Assembly: GCA_026770705.1 (NCBI GenBank)
Contig: JANJGN010000021.1
Span: forward strand, 42,966,001 to 43,030,000
Length of the DNA stretch: 64,000 bases
Reading direction: 5' to 3'
Source: Isurus oxyrinchus
Lineage: Eukaryota
In this document: positions 1,010 to 64,000 of the stretch, piece by piece
How the letters are laid out: each line of letters opens with the position of its first letter
How positions within the stretch are numbered: position 1 is the first letter of the stretch
Translations under genes and position numbers: made by a program
The notes under the pieces: model-generated
Database searches by the model: none
Seen by the model: the letters and a program-made list of their open reading frames with translations, nothing else
What the model was told of the DNA's origin: nothing

Positions 1010-3886
1010 TCTGTTACTACTGTAGCGCTGAATTTCAAAGATGTTTTCACAGGTCTTGGATATCTGCCTGGCGAATATCATCTTGAAGTAGATGAGAGTG
1101 TGAGAACAACTCAGCATCTTCCGAGAAGAGTTCCAGTTGCCCTCATGTCCAGCCAAAGACAAGATAGAGCAGCTTGAAAAGATGGGAGTAATCAGCAAAG
1201 TGACAACTCCTATAGAATGGGTTAGCAGCATGGTAGCAGTGAAGAAGTCTGGAAAGCTGAGAGTGTGCATAGATCCAAAGGACCTCAATAAAGCTTCGAA
1301 GAGATCCACTATCCCAAGCCAAACATGGAAGAAATTTAGCTGCAACTTGCCAAGGCAAAAGTTTTTATCACCCTAGATGCAGAAAATGGATTCTGGCAAG
1401 TGAAAGCAGCAGCAATTTCCTGACTACGTTCTGGACACCATTTGGGAAGTACGGATGGTTGCGTATGCTGTTTGGCATTTCCACTGCTCTGGAAGAGTGT
1501 CAACGCGACAGCATGCCAATGATCTTCCACGAATGGAAACAACTGTGGATGATCTATAGATGTTTATCGATGTGGAGTTATGATGGAAGAAACCATCACA
1601 GACAATGATCAGAATCCAGAGAGACTCCTAAGGAGAGCTCACCAGGTGAACCGGAAGCTGAGCAAGAAAAAACTGCTACTCAAAATGACCAAAGTCAAGT
1701 GCATAGGTCAAGTGTTGACACCGAAAGGAGTTCACCTTGATTATAATAAGGTGAGAGCTGTAGCAGAGATGCAGCAACCAACAGATGTGAAGGTGGTGCA
1801 ACGATTTGTTGGATCTGTGAACTACCTAGCAAAGTTCTTGCTCAATTTGTCATCAGAGTGTGGACCTCTACACAAGCTCATTGCAAAGGATGTTCAGTAT
1901 TATTGGGGCTCAGAACAAGAAGCAGCTTTCACTCGCGTTAAACAACTAACGACTACAACATCAATGTTGACATACTATGATGTCAACGAGCAGCAGTGTG
2001 ATGCAGATGAGACTGGACTTGGAGCAACCTTCATGATGCAAGGACAACCCGTTGTGTTTGCATCAGGAGCATTAATGCAAACTGAATGAAATTATGCCCA
2101 GATTGAGAAAGACTGCTTCACTATTGTCTTTGGTTGGGAAGATTTTAATCAGTGCCTGTTTTGGGGAGACAAAGTGATGGTGGAATCTGACCACTTCAAA
2201 GCATCTTTCTCAAACTGCTTCTATCTGCTCCCAAAGCAGCTGCAAAGGACATTACTTCATTTGCAGAGCTATCATTTGGAAATGAAGTACAAGCAAGGGA
2301 AGGAGATGTACATTGCCGACATGCTGTCAAGGGCCTCAATCTGTTTGAAATGTGTTGATGACCCTAGCACAGAGTGTGAAATCTTCCACGTTCAATGGGA
2401 AACAACTGCACAACATGCTGTGGAAGTCATCAACCCAGCAGAGACATTGAATTTGACAGACAAGCGTCTTGCTCAGATCAAGCAAACCACACAAGATTCA
2501 ACTCTCCAATTGATACAGGAATTAGTGATGAAAGGATGATCTGATACCATCAAGGACACACCTGTTGCTATAAAAGTATCAGGCATACAGAGATGAAGTG
2601 ATTGCCCAAGGTGGCACCTTATATAGAGTCACTATCCCTAAGGAGATGAGAAAAGAGATGTTGAAGTGCATCCATGCAAGCCATTGAGAAATTGAGTCTA
2701 GTCTGAGGAAGGCATGAAAAATGCTTTATTGGTCAAAAATAAGCAATCAGATTAAGGACCACATCAGGCAGTGCAGTGTTTGTAATGAATATCATGCTAA
2801 GCAAGCTAAAGAGCCACTCGTGACATCCCAGACAGGCCATGGATGAAGCTTGGAGTAGACCATTTCACTCTGTTTGGAACTGATTATCTCATCACTGTTG
2901 ACTCATACTCAGATTACTGGGAGTTAGGCAAACTGACATCAATGACTGCCAGTGAGATTGTATAATGCCAGAAAGCATACTTCAGTCATCATGGCATTCC
3001 TGACATTGTTATGAGAGACAATGGCCCTCGGTTCACAAGCGAAGAATTCAGACACTTTATGAATGATTGGGAAATAAGTACTGCACATCTTCTCCACACT
3101 AGCCCCAGTCAAATGGAAATGCTGAGGAGCAGTGAAAATTGCCAAAATTGCTAAAGGCATGGAAAGTAGTCCAGTCCAGTGACTAATATCTCACTGCACC
3201 CAACCTACTCTTCCAATTGTTAAAAAACAACTGTATTCAGAAGTAGTAACATGAGAAAGTGACAAAGCTAAAGTGAAACGAGAGCCAAATTTCACTTTGA
3301 TAAAGCTGCCAAATCATTGCCAGAGTTGGAGAACTGATCAGGGTGTAAACATTCAATGTGTTCAAAAAAAGTCAGCCCCCTTGGCAACTTGGAATCTGTG
3401 TAAAAAGCAATTGTTGCCTTGATCATACACGGTGAAAATGAACGCCCAGATATATTGCCAAAGCTGCAGACAAATACATGCAATTGGAGAAACTGCTCCT
3501 TCGCAGCAGTCAGCTGACGAGGAAGAACTGATTTTGGCAACTGGACAAAGGATGGAATGACCATCAGTCGCAGAGGTCAACTGCTCTCCAACAAATACAA
3601 CTGATCAGCAATAACATTCTCCAAAGAGGCAAAGCCACCTCAGGAGCCAGCAGGCACCAGACAAACAACCAAAAACAACCTGCAGATGCACGCGTATCAT
3701 TAGAAAACCTGAACGCATTAAAGATTATGTATGTAATGTATGTGTAGGGACAGACAAAACTGAGACAGCTTTGAATGAACGGTTTTCTGTTCATGCTTGA
3801 TGACTCTCTCTGATTGTGTATGTTGGTAACTTGCAAATGCAAATGTGCATGCAATGCAATTTTTTCTTTTTATGAAAAGGGGGAAG

Positions 3887-5863: not shown

Positions 5864-7351
5864 ATGACCCTCTAAGGCAAGAAGAATGCAGCACCCCAGT
5901 TGAATGTCAGTTTGACTACTGGATGCCATGGAGGCCCACCAGGATGTCCTGTAGCCTCGCTTTGGCTGCAGGATGGGCAGCAACGTGACCAATCTAGCTT
6001 GGGAGGCAGTAGTAGCAGTGGTCAGTGCCAACGCCCTTCAGAAGAGGACAGCCACCCAGTGCTGCAAAAGGATGAACGATCTCCTCTGTTCTGCCAGGGT
6101 AAGTCATTCTTTTCATCACTCTCAACTTTCACACTCTCAAACCTAGCATACATCTACAGGGCCCTCAGTCACTGCCAGTTCAAGGGACATCATTATTCAC
6201 TCTCTCACGCTCACCATTATTGTCCTCATCCCATCCATGGGACCATTCACCAGCCATGTTTATCATCTGGTCCAACTTACACTCTCTATCTCTATTCATG
6301 CAGGACAAGCTGGCACACAACAAGAGGGAGAGGTCACAGACTGGTGGTGGAATGCCCAAAATCCTCATGGAGTTTGAAAACAGCCGTCCAGGATTTGGAC
6401 CAGTCCTGTGCTGACGGTGAGGTTGGCGCTGCTCTACCAAGTGAGGATCCAGCAGCGCAACATCCATCAGACAACCATATGGTGAGTGATGTGTCCTCTT
6501 TCACAGGCCACTGCCATACACTAATTTTCTCTGCTTGCTTTCGTAGGCAAATCTGCCAAACAGCCGACAGAGTCCATGACCCAGGGCACCAATCAATTAT
6601 GGAAGAAACCTCTGAAGGGGAATCTGGAGGCACCCTCCTTGAAGTCACATCACAGCACTCACCCAAACCCTCCACCAGCACAAAGACACACACTTCGGTG
6701 GGACCTAGCTTCAGAATAGCCTCAGGATCACTCACTGGTGAGGACCTCGCGCTGTCTGATCCACAGCAGGTGGCGGCAGGGACTTCCCAGGTGTCAGGCT
6801 CTCAGAGGGCTGCTGGAGACCAGAATGTTGCTGAGTCCGAGTCAGATGATGAGCCTCTGGACTCGGTCATGTCACAGTTGCTGGAGCTGCAAAGGCAAGC
6901 TCGTGAACATCAGAAAAGGATGTCTGCTGCACTCGTCAGAATACAAGGCACGGTGGAGGAGTCTGGCCTTCGTCAGTCTGAGGTGATAGCACCGGCATGT
7001 CAATGCACTAAGCTCAACACTGGTAGGATGGCAGCTGCCGTGGTGACCTGGGTCCAAGATTTTGCTTCTGCACTGCTGTGCAGACTCAACTTCATCGCTG
7101 ATGCCAGAGTTGGCCTCCAACAGTGTGTACACGAGGGGTGCCGGGCAGCTCGATCTCATTCCAGCTATCCCTGCTCCTCAATGAGTCAGCGTTGGGCCCC
7201 TAGGCACCCACAGGGAGGATGGTCCACAGGTGCACACTCCAGGCCCATCCATCCAGATGACTCCGAGAGTGTCCAGCCCTTCCAACTCCCATCTTCCCAT
7301 CTTCTGACCAAAGTGATGGTCCGGCCTCACACTCCCTGGACACATTACTGA
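5864..7351 (+). pseudogene. Harbinger Myb/SANT (trihelix) DNA-binding protein gene, spliced, degenerate
   Basis: LAWEAVVAVVSANALQKRTATQCCKRMNDLLCSAR, then a GT..AG intron 6099-6303, then DKLAHNKRERSQTGGG. Second intron probably 6482-6546. In-frame stops present. Confidence 0.8.
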
Positions 7352-7809: not shown

Positions 7810-9058
7810 TCTATGGGGTCGCCTCACTGCATGTTGCCATCATCCTCCACAAATCTAGCACCTGTGAGGGTTACCTGACTGCGTCTGCCTTGTCTAGCCA
7901 GTGCGAGGGCCTCATCCCTGCCAAAGTTATCTCCAAGGATCTCCTTAGCCTCATCCCCATCGGTGTCATCCTCATGGGAGGAGACGTGCAGCCCCTCCAT
8001 CTCTTCCTCAGCCAGCTCATCTTCTCATTTGAGCAGACACTGATGATGTGTGACACTCTATTTTGCAGGGCTCCACCAGACTGGCCCAAGTACTGGAACC
8101 TCATCTTCAGCATCCCGATGGTTTGCTCCACTGAAGTTGCAAGCTGCAGCATGAGTTTCATTATACCGTCACTCTGCTGCAGTCTGAGGCTGCTGCACGG
8201 GTGTCATCAGCCACGGCCTCTGCGGGTAGCCCTTGTCTCTGAGGAGCCATCCCTGCAGCTTGTGTGGACCCTGGAAGACTCCAGGGATCTACAGCATCTG
8301 AGGATGTAGGAGTCATGCACACCCTCTGCAAACCGTGCGCACACCTGCAGGATGTGTTTCTGGTGGTCGCACACCAGATGCACATTCAGCGAATGGAAGC
8401 CCCTTCGGTTGGTGAAGTCCACCATGTGTTGTGATGGAGACCTGAGCACCAGATGAGTGCAGTCAATCGCACCCTGCACCTGTGGGAATCCCAAGATCTG
8501 GGCGAATCCAATCGCTCTTGCATCCTGGCTGTCCTGGTCCCTGGTGAAAAGCACAAAGTTGTGTGCCCTCACAAAGATGGCATCCATGACCTCATGGATG
8601 CATTTGTGGGTGGAGGCTTGAGAGATCCCACAGAGGTCACCAGTGGAACCCTGAAAGGAACCACTGGCATAGAAATTAAGCCCCTGCTGTTACTTTCACA
8701 GCCACTGGCAGTGGATGCCCTGCATGCCCCAGTGGCGCCAATTCCTGCAGTAAATGGCAGATGTGAGCAACCAGTTTCCTAGACATTCACAGTCTTTGGA
8801 GACGCTGGTCATCTGCAGGAATGACAGGCGGCCTCTATAAACCCTGGGTGTCACTAGGCACAGACCTGCAATGGCTCGCTGTGGCTCTTGGGCGGAGTGT
8901 GTGGGAGCCCCAGCCAACCCTTTTTCCTGAAGTTGCTGCTCCTGCCTTTGCATAGCCAGGAGCCTCTGTCGCTCTCTCCTCCGTCTTCTTAGCACTCTGT
9001 AGGCCATCAGGCATAGAGTTAAGTCACCAGACACGATGATCCTGATGTGCTCCTGCAG
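7810..9058 (-). pseudogene. Harbinger DDE transposase (HARBI1-like), degenerate
   Basis: GFPQVQGAIDCTH, NRRGFHSLNVHLVCD, GVHDSYIL, VEQTIGMLKMRFQYL motifs spread over several frames. Confidence 0.9.
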
Positions 9059-11470: not shown

Positions 11471-14400
11471 AGAGGCGATGATGCAGTGGTATTGTCACTG
11501 GACCAATAATATAGAGGCCCAGAGTAATGCTCTGGGGACCCAGGTTCGAATCCCGCGGCAGATGGTGGAATTTAAATTCAATAAAAATCTGGAATTAAAA
11601 GTCTAATGATGACCATGAAATAATTGTTGACTGTTGTGAAAGCCAATCTGGTTCACTGATGTCCTTTAGGTAATGAAACCTGACATCCTTAGCTGGTCTG
11701 GACTATATGTGACCCCAGACCTACAGCAATGTGTTTGACTCTTAATTGCTCTTTGAACAAACTGCTACAAAGTCACAGAAAAGGAATGAAACCAGACAGA
11801 CCACCCAGCATCGACCTAGGTACCAGAAGTGGCAATTGCAGCCCTGTCAACCCTGCAAAGTCCTCCTTACTAACATTTGGGGGCAAGTGCCAAAATTGGG
11901 AGAACTGTCTCATATCCTAGTCAAGCAACAGCCAGACATAGTCATCCTCACGGAATCATATCTTACAGTTAATGTCCCAGACACCACCATCACCATCCAT
12001 GGGTATGTCCTGTCCCATCTGCAGGACAGACCCAGCAGAGGTGGTGGCACGGTGGTGTACAGTCGAGAGGGAGTTGCACTGGGAGTCCTCAACATCAATT
12101 CTGGACCCCGTGAAGTCTCATGGCATCAGGTCAAACAGAGGCAAGGAAACCTCTTGCCGATTACCATGTACCACCCTCCCTCTGCTGATGAATCAGTGCA
12201 CCTCCATGTTGAACATTACTTGGAGAGAGCACTGAGGGTGGCAAGGATGCAGAATGTACTCAGGGTGGGGGACTTCAATGTCCATCACCAAGAGTGCCTC
12301 GGTGGCACCACAACTGGCCAAGCTGGCCAAGTCCTAAAGGACATAGCTGCTAGACTGGGTCTGCAGCAGGTGGTGAGGGAACAAGAGGGAAAAACATACT
12401 TGACCTCATCCTCACCAATCTGCCTGCCACAGATGCATCTGTCCATGACAGTATTGGTAGGAGTGACCATCGCACAGTCATTGAGAAGATGAAGTCCCAC
12501 CTTTACATTGAAGACATCGTCCATCATGTTGTGTGGCACTACCACCATGCTAAAGGGGCTAGATTTTGAACAGATCTGGCAACACAAGACTGGGCATCCA
12601 TGAGGCTCTGTGAGCCATCAGCAGCAGCAGAATTGTACTCGAACACAGCCTGTAAGCTCATGGCCCAGCATATCCCCCACTCTATCACCATCAAGCCAGT
12701 GGATCAACCCTGGATCAATGAAGCATGCAGGAGGGCATGCCAGGAGCAGCACCAGGCATACCTAAAAATGAGGTGTGAACCTAGTGAAGCTATAACACAG
12801 GACTACTATCATGCCAAACAACAGAAGCAGCAAGTGATAGACAGAGCTAAGTGATCCCACAGCCAACGGATCAGTTCTAAGCTCTGCAGTCCCTGCCACA
12901 TCCAGTCGTGAATGGTGGTGGACAATTAAACAACTCACTGGAGGAGGTGCCTCCACAAATATCCCCATCTGCAATGATGGAGGAGCCCAGCACAGCAGTG
13001 CAAAAGATAAGGCTGAAGCATTCACAACAATCTTCAGCCAGAAGTGCCAAGTGGATGATCCATTTCGGCCTCCTCCGGAGGTCCCCAGCATGACAGATGG
13101 CAGCCTTCAGCCAATTCGATTCACTTCACTTGAAATCAAAAAACAGCTGAAGGCACTGAATACTGCAAAGACTATGGGCCCTGACAATATTCCAGCAATG
13201 TACTGAAGACTTGTGTTCCAGAACTTGCTGCGCCCCTAGCCAAGCTGTTCCAGTACAGCTACAATACTGGCATCTACCAGGTTATGTGGAAAATTGTCCA
13301 GGTATGTCCTGTACACAAAAAGCAGGACAAATCCAAATCACCAATTACCGCCCCATCAGTTTACTCTGAATCATCAGTAAAGCAATGGAAGGGGTCTTCA
13401 ACAGTGCTATCATGCAGCACTTGCTTTGCAATAACCTTCTCACTGATGCCCAGTTGGGTTCCGCCAGAGCCACTCAGCTTCTTACCTCATTACAGCCTTG
13501 GTTCAAACATGGACAAAAGAGCTGAACTCCTGAGGTGAGGCAAGAGTGACTGCCCTTGACATCAAGGCTGCATTTGACCAAGTGTGGCATCAAGGAGCCC
13601 TAGCAAAACTGGAGTCAATGGGAATTGGGGGAAAACTCCCCGCTGGTTGGAGTCATTTCTAGCACAAAGGAAGATGGTTGTAGTTGTTGCAGGTCAGTCA
13701 TATCAGCTCCAGGGCATCATTGCCGGAGTTCCTCAGGGTAGTGTCCTGGGTCCAACCATCTTCAGCTACTTTATCAATGACCTTCCTTCCATCGTAAGGT
13801 CAGAAGTGGGGATGTTCGCCGATGATTGCACAATGTTCAGCACCATTTGCAACTCCTCAAATACTGAAGCAGTCCATGTCCAAATGCAACAAGACCTGGA
13901 CAATATCCAGGCTTGGACTGACAAGTGGCAAGTAACATTCACACCACACAAGTGTCAGGCAATGACCATCTCCAACAAGCAAGAATCCAACCATCACTCC
14001 TTGATATTCAATGGCATTACCATAACTGAATCCCCCACTATCAACATCCTGGGTGTTACCATTGACCAGAAACTGAACTATATGGACTAGCCATATAAAT
14101 ACTGTGGCTACAAGAGCAGGTCAGAGGCTAGGAATTGTGCGATGAGTAACTCAACTCCTGACTCCCCAAAGCCTGTCCACCATCTACAAGGCACAAGTCA
14201 GGAGTGTGATGGAATACTCCCCACTTGTCTGGTTGAGTGCAGCTCCCACAACACTAAAAAAGCTGGGCACTGTCCAGAACAAAGCAGTCCACTTGATTGG
14301 CACCACATCCACAAACATTCAGTCCCCCCACCTCCGACTCACAGTAGCAACAGTATGTACCATCCACAAGGTGCACTGCAGTAATTCACCATTGTTCCTT

Positions 14401-14733
14401 AGACAGCACCTTCCAAACCCACGACCACTGGCACCTAGAAGGACAAGGGAAGGCAGCAGATAGATGGGAACATCACCATCTGGAGGTTCCACTCCAAGTC
14501 ACTCACCTTCCTGACTTGGAAATATATCACTGTTCCTTCACTGTTGCTGGGTAAAAATTGTGGAACTCGCTCCTTAACAGCACTGTGGGTGTACCAACAC
14601 CTCATGGCCTGCAGCGGTTCAAGAAGGGAGCTCACCACCACCTTCTCAAGGGCAACCAGGCATGGGCAATAAATGCTGGTCCAGCCAGCGAATCCCACAT
14701 CCCATGAATGAATTAAAAAAAAACAAAAACAAA
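11471..14733 (+). mobile_element. Near full-length CR1/L2-group LINE (APE + RT, no ORF1) with a tRNA-like 5' head, degenerate
   Basis: APE motifs NIWG, PDIVILTES, GGGTVVY, GDFNVHH, SDH; RT motifs GVPQGSVLGP and FADD; 3' tail AATAAA...ATGAATGAATT followed by an A-rich run. Exact clade not determined. Confidence 0.9.
11479..11553 (+). promoter_or_regulatory. tRNA-type internal Pol III promoter (A and B boxes) at the LINE 5' end
   Basis: A-box-like TGATGCAGTGGT (11479-11490) and perfect B box GGTTCGAATCC (11543-11553). Confidence 0.75.
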
Positions 14734-17280: not shown

Positions 17281-18005
17281 GGCCTGAGTCTTACTCTCAT
17301 CGGGTGCACACGATCGCGGGCCCCAAAGTGGACGCGAAATGTGCTTCTGGTCACGATCGGCCTCCAAATGCAATTTCACGCTGCCAGTGTGAAATGTACA
17401 CTGGAAAAGCCCCAGTGCCATCAGGGAAGGCAGAAAGAGGGCGGGTGCTAACAAAAATGAGGGTGTGGGTGGACACTTATAGCGAGTTCCCTGAAGGCAG
17501 ACAACTGCTGCGGAGCTGCAGACCTGTACATATTAAATGACAGGAAAAAAATACAGCAAGCACATTCAAGTACCTGACAACAGAACTCAATAAATATCAG
17601 TCCCCAGATATCATTTTTTAATTATATTTCTCCCCAGACATTTCATCCCGCCCTGGTCAAGGTTTCAGTGAAAGTGTGAAGGCTGTCAACTGTCCACTGC
17701 CACCTTTTGAAGGGCAACTAGGCATGCGCAATAAATACTGACCCAGCCAGCAAAGCCCACATCCCATGAATGAATAAGAAAAAAGTGAATGGGCCACATA
17801 AAATCGATTACAGTTGCCTCCTTAATGGGCTTAATTGCCCACTTGATTGTCGGCAGACCTGCCTTCAACTGCCGCATGTACCTGCCGAGCGAAATATTAT
17901 GTGAGTGCGTGATGACGTCGGGATGCACACCCAATGTCTTCTCGCCTGATTTCACGTGTTGTCTGGTCGGGCACATGCCCGCACAGCCAACATAAAATTC
18001 TGGCC
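17281..18005. mobile_element. Harbinger-type MITE
   Basis: Ends GGCCTGAGTCTT / AAAATTCTGGCC, TSD ATG; homologous to the 322-1009 family. Confidence 0.8.
17686..17785 (+). mobile_element. 5'-truncated 3' tail of the LINE family at 11471-14733, inserted in the MITE
   Basis: GCCACCTTTTGAAGGGCAACTAGGCATGCGCAATAAATACTG...CCCACATCCCATGAATGAATAAGAAAAAA matches 14632-14723. Confidence 0.85.
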
Positions 18006-35089: not shown

Positions 35090-35785
35090 AGAGTCATAGA
35101 GTTATATAGCACAGCAACAGATCCTTTGACCCATCGTGTCTGTGCTGGCCATCAAGCAGCTATCTGTTCTAATCCCATTTTCCGGCACTTGGCTCATAGC
35201 CCTGAATGCTATGGCATTTTAAGTGCTCATCTAAACACTTAAATGTTGTGAGGGTTCCTGCCTCTACCACCCACTTAGGTGGTGTGTTCCAGATTCCAAC
35301 CACCCCCCGGGTGAAAAAAAATGTCCTCAAATCCCTCTAAACCTCCTGCCCATAACCTTAAATCTATGCCCCCTGGTTATTGACATTGCTGCTAAGGGGA
35401 AACATTACTTCCTAGCTACTTTATCTATGCCCCTCATAATTTTGTATACCTCTATCAGGTCCCCTCCCAGCCTCCTCTGCTTGAAGGAAAGCAACCCTAG
35501 CTTATCCAGTCTCTCTTCACAGCTGAAATGCTCCAGCTCAGGCAACACCCTCTCTAGTGCAAACACATCCTTCCTATAGTCTGGTGACCAGAACTGCACA
35601 CAGTACTCCAGCTGTGGCCTAACTAGTGTTTTAAACAACTTCAACATAACCTCCCTGCTCTTATATTCTATGCCTTGGCTAATAAAGGCAAATATCCCAT
35701 ATGCCTTCTTAAAAATCTTATCTACCTGTGCTGCTACCTTCAGGGATCTATGGACATGTACACCAAGGTCCCTCTGATCCTCTGT
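35090..35785 (-). mobile_element. CR1 (HER1-like) LINE 3' fragment
   Basis: LFKTLVRPQLEYCVQFWSP...RRLGGDLIEVYKI on the minus strand plus 3' UTR. Confidence 0.9.
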
Positions 35786-37545
35786 ACTTTCCTTCTGCCA
35801 TAGGGAAAATGCTAGAATCTATTATTAAGGAGGGTAAAAGTGGGGCACTTAGAAAATCTTAATGCAATCAGGCAAGTCAATATGGTTTTGTCAATATTTG
35901 ATTAATTTATTAGAGTACTTGAGGAAGTAACAAGCAATGTAGATAAAGGAGAAACTGTAGATGTTGTGTACTTGGACTTCCAAAAGGCATTTGACAAGGT
36001 GCTGCATCAAATCCACTACACAAAATAAGAGCTTATGGTGTAGGGGTAACATATGATCATGGATAGAGGATTGGTCAGCTAGCAGGAAACTAAGTGTAGG
36101 GATAAATGGATCATTTTTGGGTTGGCAAGATGTAACCAGTGGAGTGCCACAGTGCTGGGACCTCAATTATTTACAGTCTATATCAATAACTTGGATGAAA
36201 GGACCAAATGTATGGTTGCTAAATTTACTGATGACACAAAGATAGGTAGCAACGTAAGTTGTTGAGAAGACATAATGTGCTGTAATTTCGACTAGCGTCA
36301 GAAAGTGCTGGTGCACAGGAAATAGAAGAAATAATACCTACTTACCTAGTCTTGAAAATTACGTTGCCACTTCCATTCGCTGGAGCTGCTTGGGGTCCTC
36401 CTCGCAGGCCCCAGTGAAGTGTAGCACCAATGGATTCAAGGAGGCCACGCCTCGTTTTTACAGCACTTGCTGCTGTAAAGCAGGTAAGTTTAAAGGGCCA
36501 AGGAAATTGACAGACCAAGGAGAAGGCAAGTGCCTAAGGTAAGTGGATAGAATTGGTGGGTGGGATGTCTGGGGGCAGTCCAGGGGGCCGAAAGGGGGTG
36601 GGTCAGAGGCCTGGGGGGGTCAAAAGTCTACGGGGGCGGTCCAAGGTACCGGGGGGTGGGGTCCGTGGTACCGGAAGGTGGGGTACAAGGTAGGGGTGGG
36701 TCCGAGACATGGTGGGGGTCCGAGGTACAGGGGTGGTGCTTGAGGATGGGGTCAGATGTTGGTTGGAGGTCTGGGGCATCGTGGTGGGGGGAGGGCTGAG
36801 GTCCGGGGGCTGGGGTCGAATGTCCGATGGGGGTGTGAGATCTGGGGGGTTCCAGGGTCAGGAAGGTCATGAGAGGGATCCTTGGTTTGGAGGTATGGCT
36901 GGGTGGTAGTCAGAGGTCTGGAAGGTTTGGAGATCCTTGGGGGTGCCCAAGGAAATTGAGAGATATTGCAGAACCCAGCAGTACAGAGTGACCTGGGTGT
37001 CCTGGTCCATGAATTGCAAAAAAATGTTAGTATGTGGGTACAGGAAGTGATTTGGAAGGCAAATGGGATGTGTTGTTTATTGCAAGGGGCATGGAATATA
37101 ATAGGAGGGAGATTTTGCTACAGTTGTACAAGGGCACTGCTGTGTCCACATCTGGCGAAAAGTTTTGGTCTCCTTGTTTAAGAAACAATGTAATTGCATT
37201 AAAAGCATTGCAGAGAATATTCACTTTACTGATTCCTAGGATGAAGGGAGTGTCTTATGAGGAAAAGTTGGACAGGTTGGGCCTTTATCCATTGGAGTTC
37301 AGAAGAATGAGCGGTGATCTTATTGAAACATATGAGAGGACTTGACAAGCTGGATGCTGAAAGTAGGTTTCCCCTTGTGGGAGCGACTAGAGCTAGGGTG
37401 AACAGTTTAAAAAGAGGTCTCCCATTTAAAATGGAGATAAGGAGATTTTTTTCTCTCAGAGGGCTGTTAGTCTGGTGAATTCTCTTCCTCAAAGAGCAGT
37501 AGAGGCGGGGTCATTGAATATTTTTAAGGCCAAGTTAGATAGATT

Positions 37546-52239: not shown

Positions 52240-53572
52240 AATGTATAGATGATTTCAATTTTTGAGTGCATCAGGGATTGTTTCTTAGATCAATAGGTTG
52301 TAGAACCTACCTGGGAGCAAGCTATTTTAGGTCTAGTAATGTGTGATGAGGTAGGATTAATAAACGATATCGAAGTTAAGGATCCCCTATTGGATAGCGA
52401 TCACAACATGGTAGAATTTCAAATTTAGTTTGAGGGCAAGCAACTCAGGTCTCAAATCAGTGTCCTCAACTGTATTGAGGGTTATGCACTATTTAGAATT
52501 GAGGATTGGTTAACACACAGAAGACAGAGAGTTGGGATTAATGGGTCTTTTTCGAGTTGGAAAGACGTGACTAGCGGAGTGCCACAAGGACCTCAATTAT
52601 TTACTATCTATATTAATGATGTGGAGGAGGGAGCAGAGTGTAATATATCCAAGTTTGCTGATGATACAAAAATAGGTAGGAGGGCATGTTACGATGAGGA
52701 CTTAAGGAATCTGCAAAGGGATATAGATAGGTTGAGTAAGTGGGCGAAAACTTGGAGATGGAGTTTAATGTAGGAAAGTGTGAGGTCATGCACTTTGGCA
52801 GGAAGCATCAAAAGGCAAACTATTATTTAAATGGAGAGGGACTCCAAAAAAGTGCAGTACAGAGGGATCTGGGTGTTCTTGTGCATGAAACACAAAAAGT
52901 TAGCATGCAGGTGCAGCAAGAAATTAAGAAGGCAAATGGAATTTTGGCCTGTATTGTTCAGGGGTTGGAGTTTAAAAATAGGGAAGTCTTGTTACAACTG
53001 TACAGGGTGTTGGTGAGGCTGCACCTGGAGTACTGTGTACAGTTTTGGTCTCTGTATTTAAGAAAGGATATACTGCCATTGGAGGCAGTTCAAAATAGAT
53101 TCACTTGGCTGATTCCTGGGATGAAGGCATTGACTTATCAAGAAGCAGGTTAGGCCTTTAGTTATTAAAGTTTAGAAGAATGAGGGGTGATCTTATTGAA
53201 ATGTATAAGATTCTGAGGGGGCTTGACAGGGTAGATGTTGAGAAGATGTTTCCACTAGTGGGGGAATCTCGATCTAGGAGACATAGTTACAGAATAAGGG
53301 AACATTCATTTAAAACTGAGATGCAGAGGAATTTCTTCTCTCAAAGTGAATGTCTGGAATTCTCTACCCCAGAGAGTTGTGGAGGCTGGATCACTGAAAG
53401 TATTTAAAGAGGAAGTAGATATATTTTTGAAATATTGGAGAGTTGAGAGCTGTGAGGAGTTGGCACGAAAGGAGTTGAGGTCTCAGGCAGATTAGCCATG
53501 ATATTGAATGGTGGGGCAGGCTTGAGGGGCCGAATGGCCTACTGCTGCTCCTATTTCTTATGTTCTTATTTT
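52240..53572 (+). mobile_element. CR1 LINE fragment with internal deletion
   Basis: APE end (DSDHNMVEF) joined to RT SGVPQG, KFADDTK, LEYCVQFWS and a 3' tail. Confidence 0.9.
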
Positions 53573-56417: not shown

Positions 56418-59400
56418 GGGGAAAACTGTCTGTACCCACTGGCGTCGGGTGAGTTTGGTGGTGTGAGCAGACAATATGGCAAGAAGGCCAAAAATTGGTT
56501 TCACGATGTTGTGAAAGCAGTTTGCGATTGTCTGCTCTACCCACAGATGGCAGGCCACGTATCCCGCCATTGGACATCAGGAGCCTCATTGTAATATATT
56601 TCCATTATTTCCATTTCATTATAAACATAGCCCATTGGAATCATTCCCCACCCCCGCCCCCCCACCCTGCTGGATCGTCCACCCGATGCGTTTCATACAT
56701 ATAATAGGTGTGCACTTGGTGGGCTGCACTTAGCGGGGAACTGGAGGTAAGTACAGAGTAACATTGCGGAGCACTCGCCCAGGTCGCCTGGTGCACTTCA
56801 GGGTTGAAGCGCATTCAGAGGAGGCGGCGGCAAGGGCTGCCCTGCAGTTGACGTGACTTGGGGGGATGGGGCAAGGGCTGCCCTGCAGTTGAAGGTACCG
56901 CACAAGCACATGCAAGAGTTGGATAACGAGGGAAGCGGCTACACATTAGGCGCAGAGTTTGCCCTCGGCGTGCAGGATTAGCAGTGATGGGCAGGTGCAG
57001 TCAGGAAGCTGACCGCTGTCCACGATTGGCAGCACTGCGCGATTTTACACGGGCGAGCCAATTAAGAGCCACCCAGTCTGATACGCGAACGGTGGAACTG
57101 AGCCCTGCCTGTGGGGCCGGGGCGGGGAGTGTGAGCAGCCTAGCGCGAACTTCATGCATGCGTGCGAGAGAGCACAGAACAATCTCCCTGAGGCACTGAG
57201 CTGCCTCGGAGAGATGAAGAATATTTTGAACAAATTATTGATCATCGGAAAAATTTAATGAAACATGTCCCCTCATTCCCCTCGTGTGACTCTCTCACAT
57301 GAGCAGGGACGTGTTTTTAATTAAAAAATGCAGTTTTTATTTTATTTATGTTTGCTTTTGGAAACCTCAACCCATACGTGGATGAGGTTTCAAAAAAATG
57401 CAAAGGCTGCTTGGTCTTTTTGCCTGCCCACCAACTATTAGGTTGGATGGGCAGTGAAAATTTAAACTCAATTGATAACTTAATGGCCTTAACAGGCCTT
57501 TTAATTGTTGGTGGGGCGATGCTGACTCCGTTGCGCACCTGCCGACCGAACTACCGTGCGACTGCACATTGACCTCAGCACGCTCGGCCAACATCATTGC
57601 GTGTCATTTCACACTCAATCTGGTCGGGCACACGCCCACCCCACTGAGCTAAAAATTCTGGCCTAGGAAAACCTTGTATAAAGTGACCATTCTTCTGCAA
57701 CGAAGACAATTCAGGCACAGCCAGATTGATATGATTGGAGTCAGGCCTCTAGCTTCTCCACCCACTCAAGCAACGCAGAGGCATCAAATTGACACCGAGT
57801 GCTCCAGAGCTTTTTACCCCTTGAGCACAGACTGCAAACTAATGAGCATTTTACTGGACTGCAGAACAGTTGGACAACTGGGCACTTGTACAATCTCCTT
57901 GCTAAAGCTGACCATAGAGAAGTCACTGGTGAGGCGCACACAGCCCTTTGCAATGTCATCATCCCAGTTTGGACCAGCCTTCTTGATAGTTCAAGCTAAC
58001 AGTGCAGCCTTACAGTGCAGGTTAGGAGAATGTCTGTGCCTGAACTGAGAGCACAGCATGCAGTCCAATGGGCAAAGCTGCTGCTAATTGGTCCAGTGGA
58101 ATGGGCGGAGGATGGTGGGGTTTTGGGCAGCCACGCAATGCACTGATCTCTGGCCATCCAGGTGGTGGGCAGCACCCCGTGGGATGTGTTAAGGGGCCTT
58201 CAGACTCAACCAACACAGGTCCTTAGTACACCCATGCTAACCCATGCATCTCTCTCTTTCATCCTGCAAGAGGAGTACATCAGGATTGTGGAGCCTGGCG
58301 ACCTAACAGAATGCCTCGTGGCTTACAGACAGTGAAGAAGACTGAGAAGAGAGCAACTGAGGCACCTGGCTGCACAGAGGCAGGAGAAACACCCTCTGGA
58401 AGAATGGATGACTGGGACTCCCGCACATGCCACCAAAGAGCCACAGCGAGCCATCGTTAGTCAGTGCCTAGCTATACCCAGGGTCTATAATGCCGTCTTT
58501 CATTCCTGCAGATGATCAAGAACCAGTGTCACCGAGACTGTGCATGTCTAGGGAACTGGTTGCTCACATCTGCCAACTGCTGCAGGATTTGGCACATGGG
58601 GAAATGGAGGGCATCCACTGCCAGTGGCCGTGAAAGTGATCACACCACTCAATTCTATGCTAGTGGCTCCTTTCAGGGCTCCACAGGTCCACAGGTGACC
58701 TCTGAGGGATCTCACAAGACTCCACTCACAAATACATCCATGAGGTCACGGATGCCAGCTTCGTGAAGGCACACAACTTTATGCATTTTGCTCGGGACCA
58801 CGACAGCCAGGATGCAAGAGCAATTGGATTTGTCAAGATCTCAGGTTTCCCACAGGTGCAGGGTGCGATCGACTGCACTCACATGGCGCTCAAATCTCCA
58901 TCACAACACGCAGTGAAATACACCAACTGCAAGGGAATCTATTCGCTGAATGTGCAGTTGTTGTGCGACCTCCACAAATGCATTCTGCAGGTCTGCGCAT
59001 GGTTTCCAGGGAGTGTGCCAGACTCCTACACCCTCAGTTGGTCTCAGAGCCCTGAAGTCTTCCAGGGTCCACAGAAGCTGCAGGGATGGCTCTTCAGGGA
59101 CAAGGGCTACCCGCAGAGGACGTGGCTGATGACACCCATGCGGCGGCCTCAGACTGCAGCAGAGTGATGCTATAATGAGGCTCATGCTGCAACTTGTAAC
59201 TTGGTGGAGCAGACCATCGGGATGCTGAAGATGAGGTTCCGGTACCTGGACTGGCCTGGTGGAGCCCTGCAGTGCAGTCCGCAGAGGGTATCACGCATCG
59301 TGATCATTTGCTGTGCCCTTTGCAACCTGGTGCTGCAACAGGGGTTGTAGCTGTCTAAGGAGGAGCTGGAGGAGCTGGAGGTGTCCCCTGATGAGGAGGA

Positions 59401-60205: not shown

Positions 60206-60865
60206 GGTGGTGAAAAAGGCATATGGGACACTTGCCTTTATCAATCGAGGCAGAGATTGCAAAAGTAGGGAGGTCATGTTGGAATTGTATAGAACCTTGG
60301 TGAAGCCACAGCTGGAGTACTGTGTGCAGTTCTGGTCGCCACATTATAGGAAGGATGTGATTGCATTGGAGGGGGTGCAGAGGAGATTCGCCAGGATGTT
60401 GCCTGGGATGAAACATTTAAGTTATGAAGAGAGGTTGGATAGACTTGGATTGTTTTCTTTGGAGCAGAGAAGACTGAGAGGCGACCTGATCGAGGTGTAC
60501 AAGATTATGAGGGGCATGGACAGGGTGGATAGGGAGTACCTGTTCCCCTTAGTTGAAGGGTCAGTCATAAGGGGGCATAAGTTCAAGGTGAGAGGCAGGA
60601 GGTTTAAGGGGGATGTGAAGAAAAACTTTTTTACCCAGAGGGTGGTGATGGTCTGGAGTGCACTGCCTGGGAGGGTGGTGGAGGCGGGTTGCCTCACATC
60701 CTTTAAAAAGTACCTGGATGAGCACTTGGCACAAATTAACATTCAAGGCTATGGGCCAAGTGCTGGTAAATGGGATTAGGTAGGTAGGTCAGGTGTTTCT
60801 CACGTGTCGGTGCAGACTCAATGTGCCGAAGGGCCTCTTCTGCACTGTGATTCTGTGATTCTGTG
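60206..60865 (+). mobile_element. Young CR1 LINE 3' fragment
   Basis: Open frame VVKKAYGTLAFI...LVKPQLEYCVQFWSPHYRKD...GYGPSAGKWD*; tail (CTGTGATT)n. Confidence 0.93.
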
Positions 60866-62071: not shown

Positions 62072-62740
62072 AACATATGTAGGAGCAGGAGTAGGCCACT
62101 CAGCCTCTTGAGCCTGCTCCGCCATTCATTGAGATCATGGCTGATCTGAATATAATCTCAACCCCATATTCCTGCCTACCCCTGATAACCTTTCCCCTCC
62201 TTGTTAATCAAGAATCTATCTAACTCTGCTTTAAGAATATTGAAAGACTGCTTCCATCGCATTTCAAGGATGAGAGTTCCAAAGACTCTGTGAGAGAAAA
62301 AAGCTCTCCTCATCTCTGTCTTAAATGAGTGACCCTTTATTTTTAAATACTGACCCCTAGTTCTATATTCTCCCACAAGAGGAAACATCCTCTCCACATC
62401 TGCCCGGTCAAGACCCCTCACAATCTTAAAGGTTTCAATTGAGTCACCTCGTACTCTTCTAAAATCCAATGGATACAAGCCTAACCTGTCCAGCCTTTCC
62501 TCATAAGACAACCCGCCCATTCCTGGTATTAGTCTAGTAAACCTTATGTGAACTGCTTCTAATGCATTTACATCCATCCTTAAATAAGGAGACCAGTATT
62601 GTACACAATACTTCAGATGTGGTCTCACCAGTGCCCTGTATAGCTGAATAACCTCCCTACTTTTGCAATCAATTCTCCTCACAATAAATGATAACATCCT
62701 ATTAGTTTTCCTAATTACCTGCTGTACCTGCATACTAACC
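62072..62740 (-). mobile_element. CR1 LINE 3' fragment
   Basis: ORF 62176-62733: LYRALVRPHLKYCVQYWSP. Confidence 0.9.
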
Positions 62741-63797: not shown

Positions 63798-64000
63798 TTT
63801 TTCTTTATTCTTTAGTGGAGTGTGTGCATCACTGGTAAGGCCAGCATTTGTTGCTCATCCCTAATTGCACTTGAACTGAGTGGTTTACTCACCCATTTCA
63901 GAGGGCAGATAAGAGTCAACTATATTGCTGTGGGGCTGGATTCACATGTAGGTCAGGACAGCAGATTTCCTTCCCTGAAGTTCATTAGTGAACCAGATGG
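63798..64000 (-). mobile_element. SINE sharing its body with the 5' end and its tail with the 3' end of the LINE at 11471-14733; runs off the window
   Basis: Reverse complement: CCATCTGGTTCACTAATG...ACAGCAATATAGTTGACTCTTATCTGCCCTCTGAA (matches 11645-11757), then TCAAGTGCAATTAGGGATGAGCAACAAATGCTGGCC...GAATAAAGAAAAA (matches 14646-14720). Confidence 0.85.

Follow-up and report, generated by a model that had tools for sequence, protein, structure and literature searches.

The sense strand of a LINE family in the genome of Isurus oxyrinchus carries fewer T runs than chance would leave, and this deficit is probably best explained by selection for Pol III (RNA polymerase III) read-through. Pol III probably made full-length transcripts of the source elements. 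RNA polymerase III is thought to make non-coding RNAs only. One copy of the family lies in the window, that is, the whole stretch of 64,000 nucleotides analysed here (Table 1). A sequence-only reading of this window had pointed out the near absence of TTTT from the LINE and had proposed selection for Pol III read-through of the entire coding region.

Table 1. Features of the LINE copy and of other parts of the window, in window positions
Feature	Position	Strand	Basis and remarks
Decayed full-length single-ORF LINE copy, very probably of elasmobranch Zenon type, with SINE-type head	11471..14723	+	Collinear full-length copies, 80-89% identity
tRNA-like head	11472..11560	+	Weak Rfam tRNA match, folding of copies
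A box, type-2 Pol III promoter	11479..11489	+	Sequence and column counts; one step decayed in the window copy
B box, GGTTCGAATCC	11543..11553	+	Exact in the window copy
Non-coding body, common with the short SINEs of the genome	11561..11757	+	Head-match comparison
969-codon single frame (family level) coding for a basic leader, an AP endonuclease, and a reverse transcriptase	11758..14657	+	Majority letters of 28 copies, Pfam
AUG after an A-rich spacer	11786..11788	+	ATG in 22/26 copies; opens a 35-codon frame out of frame with the long ORF
Sole TTTT	12564..12567	+	CpG columns of 28 copies; TTTCG decayed to TTTTG after insertion
TTGTT, one of the only two 4-of-5 T motifs of the family	13684..13688	+	Family columns; the other, at 11631, is also TTGTT
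3' tail, common with SINEs, no terminator of its own	14647..14723	+	AATAAA 14668-14673; GAATGAAT 14706-14713; A tail 14715-14723
3' fragment of the two-ORF CR1 family	52240-53572	+	Control family
SINE copy of the same system, body and tail	63798-63998	-	Cut by the window end
Lone tail fragment of the same SINE system	17700-17784	+	
Diverged transposase remnant, DDE_Tnp_4 (Harbinger-like)	8207-8689	-	Near the 491-codon frame below
Diverged transposase remnant, DDE_Tnp_4 (Harbinger-like)	58706-59167	+	
491-codon stop-free frame	5876-7351	+	No Pfam match
Broken RT/RNase H region of an LTR-type element	1553-2539	+	PF17919, weak PF17917
Further CR1-like pieces	35405-35818, ~60300-60779, 62176-62739		By eye only

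A first look at the 4.98-Gb genome gave 57,123 candidates for DNA of this LINE. The window copy is dead, with six stops and eight frame-breaking indels, and the T runs were therefore tested at the level of the family. From 69 loci, 28 full-length copies were aligned; two loci that adjoin tandem arrays (L012 and L018) were left out. The mean difference of an aligned copy from the column majority is 7.8%. A distant protein was used to choose a second set of 30 copies. When a sister family in the genome was sought with this distant protein, all of the 30 loci retrieved turned out to be the same LINE family. The majority letters give one 969-codon frame that encodes both an AP endonuclease (PF03372/PF14529) and a reverse transcriptase (PF00078), with the catalytic motifs GDFN, SDH, YRPISL, GVPQGS, and FADD in frame. 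There is no ORF1 and no second long frame. A poly-A tail is found in the window copy and in most of the aligned copies, and no convincing target-site duplications were seen among the 28 copies. Fragments that cover the entire element exist in four sequencing runs, as assembled contigs only, which carry no strand, start, or polymerase information. Fragments with the variants of the family are contained in two metatranscriptome runs (X19 and X20), one of which is labelled as a coral metagenome. Tandem arrays with a unit of ~56 bp lie directly after the element in L012 (1-1430), L018 (1-1420), and L308 (500-1300). The unit derives from the 3' region of the LINE (window 14561-14607), so that the arrays are a LINE-born satellite.

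Consensus sequences of elasmobranch Zenon elements, which belong to the CR1 group, have been published (CarCar, ScyCan, RhiTyp, SquAca, and HypSab; Stuart et al. 2026, PMC13343379). Like the LINE family, these elements are ~3.3 kb long and have an endonuclease, a reverse transcriptase, and a poly-A tail but no ORF1, the absence of which is general among Zenon elements (PMC13343379). By eye, the opening 400 letters of CarCar_Zenon-1 closely resemble those of the LINE family, and on this likeness the family is very probably the published elasmobranch Zenon family. Canonical vertebrate CR1 differs in having an esterase ORF1. The reverse transcriptase of the family is only 28% identical, over 433 aa, to that of a two-ORF CR1 of the same genome, and the family is therefore not a canonical CR1.

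The T runs of the window copy are as few as had been reported. A count finds a single run of four or more T (T4) between 11471 and 14723, and 16 runs of four or more A, or 15 when the tail is omitted, where about 15 had been given. The several sense T4 runs noticed in the CR1 fragment number seven. That the one TTTT is a decayed CpG, as had been suspected, is borne out by the 28 copies, which have C 15/T 13 at column 12567 and G 19/A 9 at column 12568. In the window copy alone, the T4 deficit is weak: one run compares with 5.9 expected from a base shuffle (P 0.011), 3.45 from a dinucleotide shuffle (P 0.11), and 1.5 from an order-2 Markov model, into which the TTT deficit is already built (P 0.57). 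At the family level, T4 is absent from 3281 columns, where the base shuffle expects 4.2 (P 0.013), and T3 occurs six times; there are 14 A4, 11 C4, and 9 G4. The second set of 30 copies has the identical six T3 sites and again no T4.

Synonymous shuffles of the ORF keep both the protein and the codon usage fixed. Here T3 is found four times where 12.7 are expected, a count that none of 5,000 shuffles reached, and T4 is found zero times where 2.1 are expected (P 0.083). Runs of A, C, and G match expectation in the same shuffles. Since composition is kept, A-richness or low T content is ruled out as the whole cause. CpG decay inflates the expectations for T3 and for codon junctions, and therefore a CpG-stratified shuffle was used as well. 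It expects 10.5 T3 for the four found (P 0.0006) and 1.1 T4 for none (P 0.29). CpG-to-TpG decay, which draws T-ending codons away from T, is real, and allowing for it lowers the expectations, but it is rejected as the full cause, as the signal of T3 and of terminator motifs remains while that of T4 is lost. All four TTT of the ORF are Phe codons. The junctions between codons behave as read-through selection had been expected to shape them. Leu, Ile, Val, and Phe codons of the form NTT stand before T in 0/23 cases versus 43/203 (Fisher P 0.010), and codons ending in T stand before TT in 0/21 cases versus 202/771 (P 0.004). TT is also depleted (78 versus 96 expected). On the antisense strand, 14 T4 and numerous partial terminator motifs remain, which rules out causes that act on the double strand, such as AA/TT bending, photodimers, or sites of the element's own endonuclease. 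The purge thus affects T alone among the bases, and only the sense strand.

Human Pol III terminates partially at T3VT2, T2VT3, TVT3, T3VT, and T2VT2, according to the available part of PMC3141230; T2GT2, like T3, is described there as almost inactive. In both copy sets, the family sense strand has no T3VT2, T2VT3, TVT3, T3VT, T2AT2, or T2CT2, and no T4. With the motif ranking of human Pol III, there are zero active terminator motifs where 8.2 are expected, and 0/10,000 shuffles are as low. The CpG-stratified shuffle of the ORF expects 4.4 (P 0.0034). Two motifs with four T in five letters survive in the family and both are T2GT2, an outcome with a chance of about 1 in 9. The count of two was obtained before the ranking was known, and their identity afterwards. 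At the family level, the non-template strand thus contains no internal terminator, as in a type-2 Pol III unit. The part of the earlier proposal that invoked selection for Pol III read-through is supported by the T3, junction, and motif tests; its own measure, the T4 count, is not significant by itself against codon-matched controls. With P values of 0.08-0.29, those T4 counts are what could be expected if a T-poor coding sequence had been picked post hoc. Such an accident is nevertheless highly improbable, given the P values of 0.01 to <0.0002 in the T3, junction, and motif tests and the position of the family outside the range of 121 relatives.

A two-ORF CR1 family of the same genome and of similar age was used as the control (14 of the 20 retrieved copies). 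At the family level it is 4.3 kb long and has ORFs of 323 and 1003 codons. The comparison with another LINE of the same genome, which the sequence-only reading had asked for, turned out in its favour. CR1 has T4 and T3 runs close to expectation (10 versus 11.4 and 44 versus 42.6) and no junction avoidance, and its ORF2 contains 32 active motifs versus 27.7 expected. ORF1 is short, and its zero T4 versus 0.9 expected are too few to inform.

Relatives were collected as 160 loci from metagenome and genome contigs, 121 of them with a frame of at least 500 aa. Viral contigs yielded one weak locus, which was excluded. None of the 121 is free of T4, and the ratio of active motifs to expectation has a median of 1.01 and a minimum of 0.73. 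The T content of the LINE family (0.20) is at the low end among relatives. Eight relatives with a T content of at most 0.245 carry 7-25 motifs, and the one of equal T content and of the same clade as the family (L202) carries eight. In a quick tree of 58 rows, made without a named Zenon reference protein, the family falls into a clade with SH-aLRT 97 together with single-ORF proteins of lepidopteran, crustacean, sponge, and brittle-star origin; CR1 of the same genome stands apart. The proteins of one related clade (P0011, P0012, and P0014) have 1.6-1.7% Phe, which is low like the 1.9% of the LINE family, and are candidates for a similar T purge. ARAGORN found no tRNA in 60 loci of relatives. 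No pair of A and B boxes was found upstream of the 121 ORFs, of which only 70 have at least 300 nt of upstream sequence. Loci L201-L280 are LINEs of animal type, found in contigs whose genomes carry bacterial or archaeal labels, and are probably host DNA that entered the bins.

These relatives also bear on a mutational origin of the deficit, in which the reverse transcriptase of the family, or some strand-biased process, erodes U runs without any selection. The variants shared among copies show no filter against new T runs, which agrees with such an origin and counts against the Pol III reading: new T3 are not avoided (16/221 versus 47/586, P 0.77), nor are new active motifs (7/221 versus 26/586, P 0.55). 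The low T content of the family would fit it too, and the control CR1 is copied by a different reverse transcriptase. However, runs of A, C, and G are as expected, composition and CpG decay were controlled, and none of the 121 related reverse transcriptase elements has such a deficit. Moreover, in-frame TTT of Phe codons is kept and every out-of-frame TTT is gone. A purely mutational origin is accordingly improbable, if less so than plain chance.

The 5' end of the element has the anatomy of a tRNA-derived SINE (SINE2) head, with an A box, a B box, and a weak Rfam tRNA match (17.8 bits in copy L078, below the cut-off of 29; E 0.69). From 5' to 3' the head consists of the A box, an anticodon-like arm, a second hairpin, and the B box. 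The arm and the hairpin come from the folding of 14 copies, which has no covariation support. Within the window, ARAGORN found zero tRNA and Rfam gave no match at the gathering score. The A box was named by the box consensus of type-2 Pol III promoters. Non-CpG columns of the B box are 89-100% conserved across the 28 copies. The head may resemble a serine tRNA; a search for the donor, in which 13 of 30 tRNA loci were scanned, met only Cys, Lys, and Val genes. The hairpin between the anticodon arm and the B box (window 11518-11537) has a different sequence in the dogfish (SquAca) consensuses, where, by eye, its counterpart resembles a repeated anticodon arm and could still pair.

The head is an integral part of the LINE. 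Of the 39 loci that were retrieved by the junction of body and ORF, 33 extend to 45 nt or less from the 5' end. Among the 30 copies selected by protein, 12 begin in the head, and the truncated remainder has no other 5' end in common. The head opens all seven elasmobranch Zenon consensuses of the PMC13343379 supplement, and no TTTT was seen in their first 400 letters, which were compared by eye. By contrast, three hagfish and coelacanth Zenon consensuses are headless and have T4 runs within the first 400 letters (also by eye). A SINE that lies beside a truncated LINE by chance is ruled out by the junction loci, the protein-selected copies, and the published consensuses.

A head of this kind could also have been captured by an ordinary Pol II LINE as its 5' UTR, with U runs avoided because of Pol II termination, U-rich decay, or immune sensing. 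The depletion of TT and T3 goes beyond what the terminator rule needs and counts against the Pol III reading. This depletion, with TT rarest in the ORF's 5' half, would suit a Pol II LINE, and so would the termination of mammalian Pol II at T tracts that lie close to promoters (PMC11610936, in the part available). The same part of that paper reports little T-tract termination in gene bodies, however, while the purge covers the whole ORF. In addition, the intronless CR1 of the same genome retains T4 and T5, and divergent shark consensuses have preserved the B box (by eye; the ray is least clear). We regard a Pol II LINE with a captured SINE as unlikely.

The ORF was under purifying selection. 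Variants common to at least 8 of 58 copies comprise 33 synonymous and 21 other changes, compared with 527 and 1764 among singletons (P 4e-9). Shared variants are thus mostly synonymous and singletons are not, which means that the source elements needed the protein. The first in-frame AUG is codon 284 (12600), and none lies upstream of the endonuclease; for most close relatives a Met start is listed. The AUG at 11786 is out of the endonuclease frame in 31/32 copies and is visible by eye in the published shark and ray consensuses as well. The body contains AATAAA (11580-11585) and several short upstream AUG frames. One form of the Pol III reading, counted within its probability, is a split of labour in which the copied RNA is a Pol III product and the protein comes from capped transcripts that Pol II makes of the same elements. 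The AATAAA near the 3' end of the element speaks for this form. Against it, a capped RNA would present 11 upstream AUGs, lack an in-frame AUG ahead of codon 284, and carry an AATAAA at +110, and the purifying selection seen in the ORF is most readily accounted for if the messenger is the copied RNA itself. Such a split would be an uncommon outcome in our estimate, about as doubtful as the captured SINE.

Head, body, and tail link the LINE to short SINEs of the genome. Among the best 29 other head matches, 24 are SINEs composed of head, body, and tail, and five continue into the ORF. The SINEs are 360-385 nt long and consist of head, body, and the final 75 nt of the LINE, so that head and tail are common to both. 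The first T4 in the flank, found for 26 of the 28 copies, lies at a median of 59.5 nt downstream. SacSINE1 and LmeSINE1 are Deu-domain SINEs, known from sharks, chimaera, and coelacanth, that have a tRNA head with Pol III boxes, a conserved body, and a LINE-type tail (PMC5499810, PMC2746220, and PMC3747384, in the parts available). The short repeats with head and tail fit this plan, with SacSINE1 compared by description only, and the body is likely the Deu-type domain of SacSINE1. As far as the available parts of these sources go, SacSINE1 and LmeSINE1 are non-coding, ~460 bp long, and assigned to an L2-2_CM or CR1-4_DR-like partner; SacSINE1 is described with an L2 partner (PMC5499810). Here the partner LINE itself bears the tRNA-like head. 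It is no SINE, being 3.25 kb long with a selected ORF; only its derivatives are short and non-coding. Persaeus, a lepidopteran Zenon derivative, is likewise a short non-autonomous element made from two ends of a Zenon LINE. Unlike the SINEs here, it is without tRNA homology and without a Pol III promoter in the available account (PMC6740152). Bipartite LINE derivatives are similarly built from LINE ends; in the available part of PMC5786205, which describes them, LINEs count as Pol II units and SINEs are said to be unable to encode protein.

If the source elements were indeed Pol III units, TFIIIC would bind the internal A and B boxes and Pol III would start at the head. The 3.3-kb transcript would be completed only by variants free of T tracts, synonymous sites would be purged across many rounds of copying, and Pol III would come to a halt at the flank's first T tract. 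The RNA may then undergo AAUAAA-dependent polyadenylation, which is known for some mammalian SINEs (PMC8466645, in the part available). The endonuclease-RT made by the element would copy the RNA from its A-tailed 3' end and would also mobilise the SINEs of 360-385 nt, which have the same head and tail. Copying would proceed without ORF1, as described for Pol III templates in the available part of PMC2666806; the absence of ORF1 is general to Zenon and thus lends no support to the Pol III reading. Translation is the weakest step. Cap-independent, non-AUG, or recoded initiation is our guess because there is no in-frame AUG upstream of the endonuclease, and Pol III RNA is considered a poor template for translation in the available part of PMC6023835. 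Head and purge are a single evolutionary event, and the link between them has n = 1. The fullest form of the reading is an autonomous SINE-LINE, a 3.3-kb element that would have been transcribed by Pol III from its tRNA promoter through shark and ray history, and whose uncapped RNA would have been translated without an in-frame AUG into the enzyme that copies both the element and its SINEs. This we put forward tentatively, at a little under an even chance. R2-type LINEs are translated from uncapped RNA without AUG and are a possible precedent with a single ORF. R2 RNA is part of a Pol I co-transcript, from which a ribozyme releases it, and R2 is not known to have an internal Pol III promoter.

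The family appears to be already published and its Pol III anatomy not. The words 'tRNA', 'promoter', and 'polymerase' have zero occurrences in the main text of PMC13343379, where the head, the T purge, the missing AUG, and the link to SINEs are not remarked. No description of a coding LINE with a Pol III head was found in literature titles and abstract openings; Repbase, Dfam, subscription papers, and supplements could contain one. A Pol III head together with a selected reverse transcriptase ORF and purged stop motifs would break the division by which LINEs belong to Pol II and SINEs, taken to be unable to code, to Pol III. It would also name the real partner, or parent, of shark SINEs. The 3.3 kb of evolved terminator-free sequence would be an independent record of the T-rich motifs that stop Pol III. 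Finally, the family would offer a natural way to test whether an RNA made by Pol III in a vertebrate can serve as a messenger. If it is true that the same RNA is translated, vertebrates would have a natural mRNA made by Pol III, a new kind of messenger.
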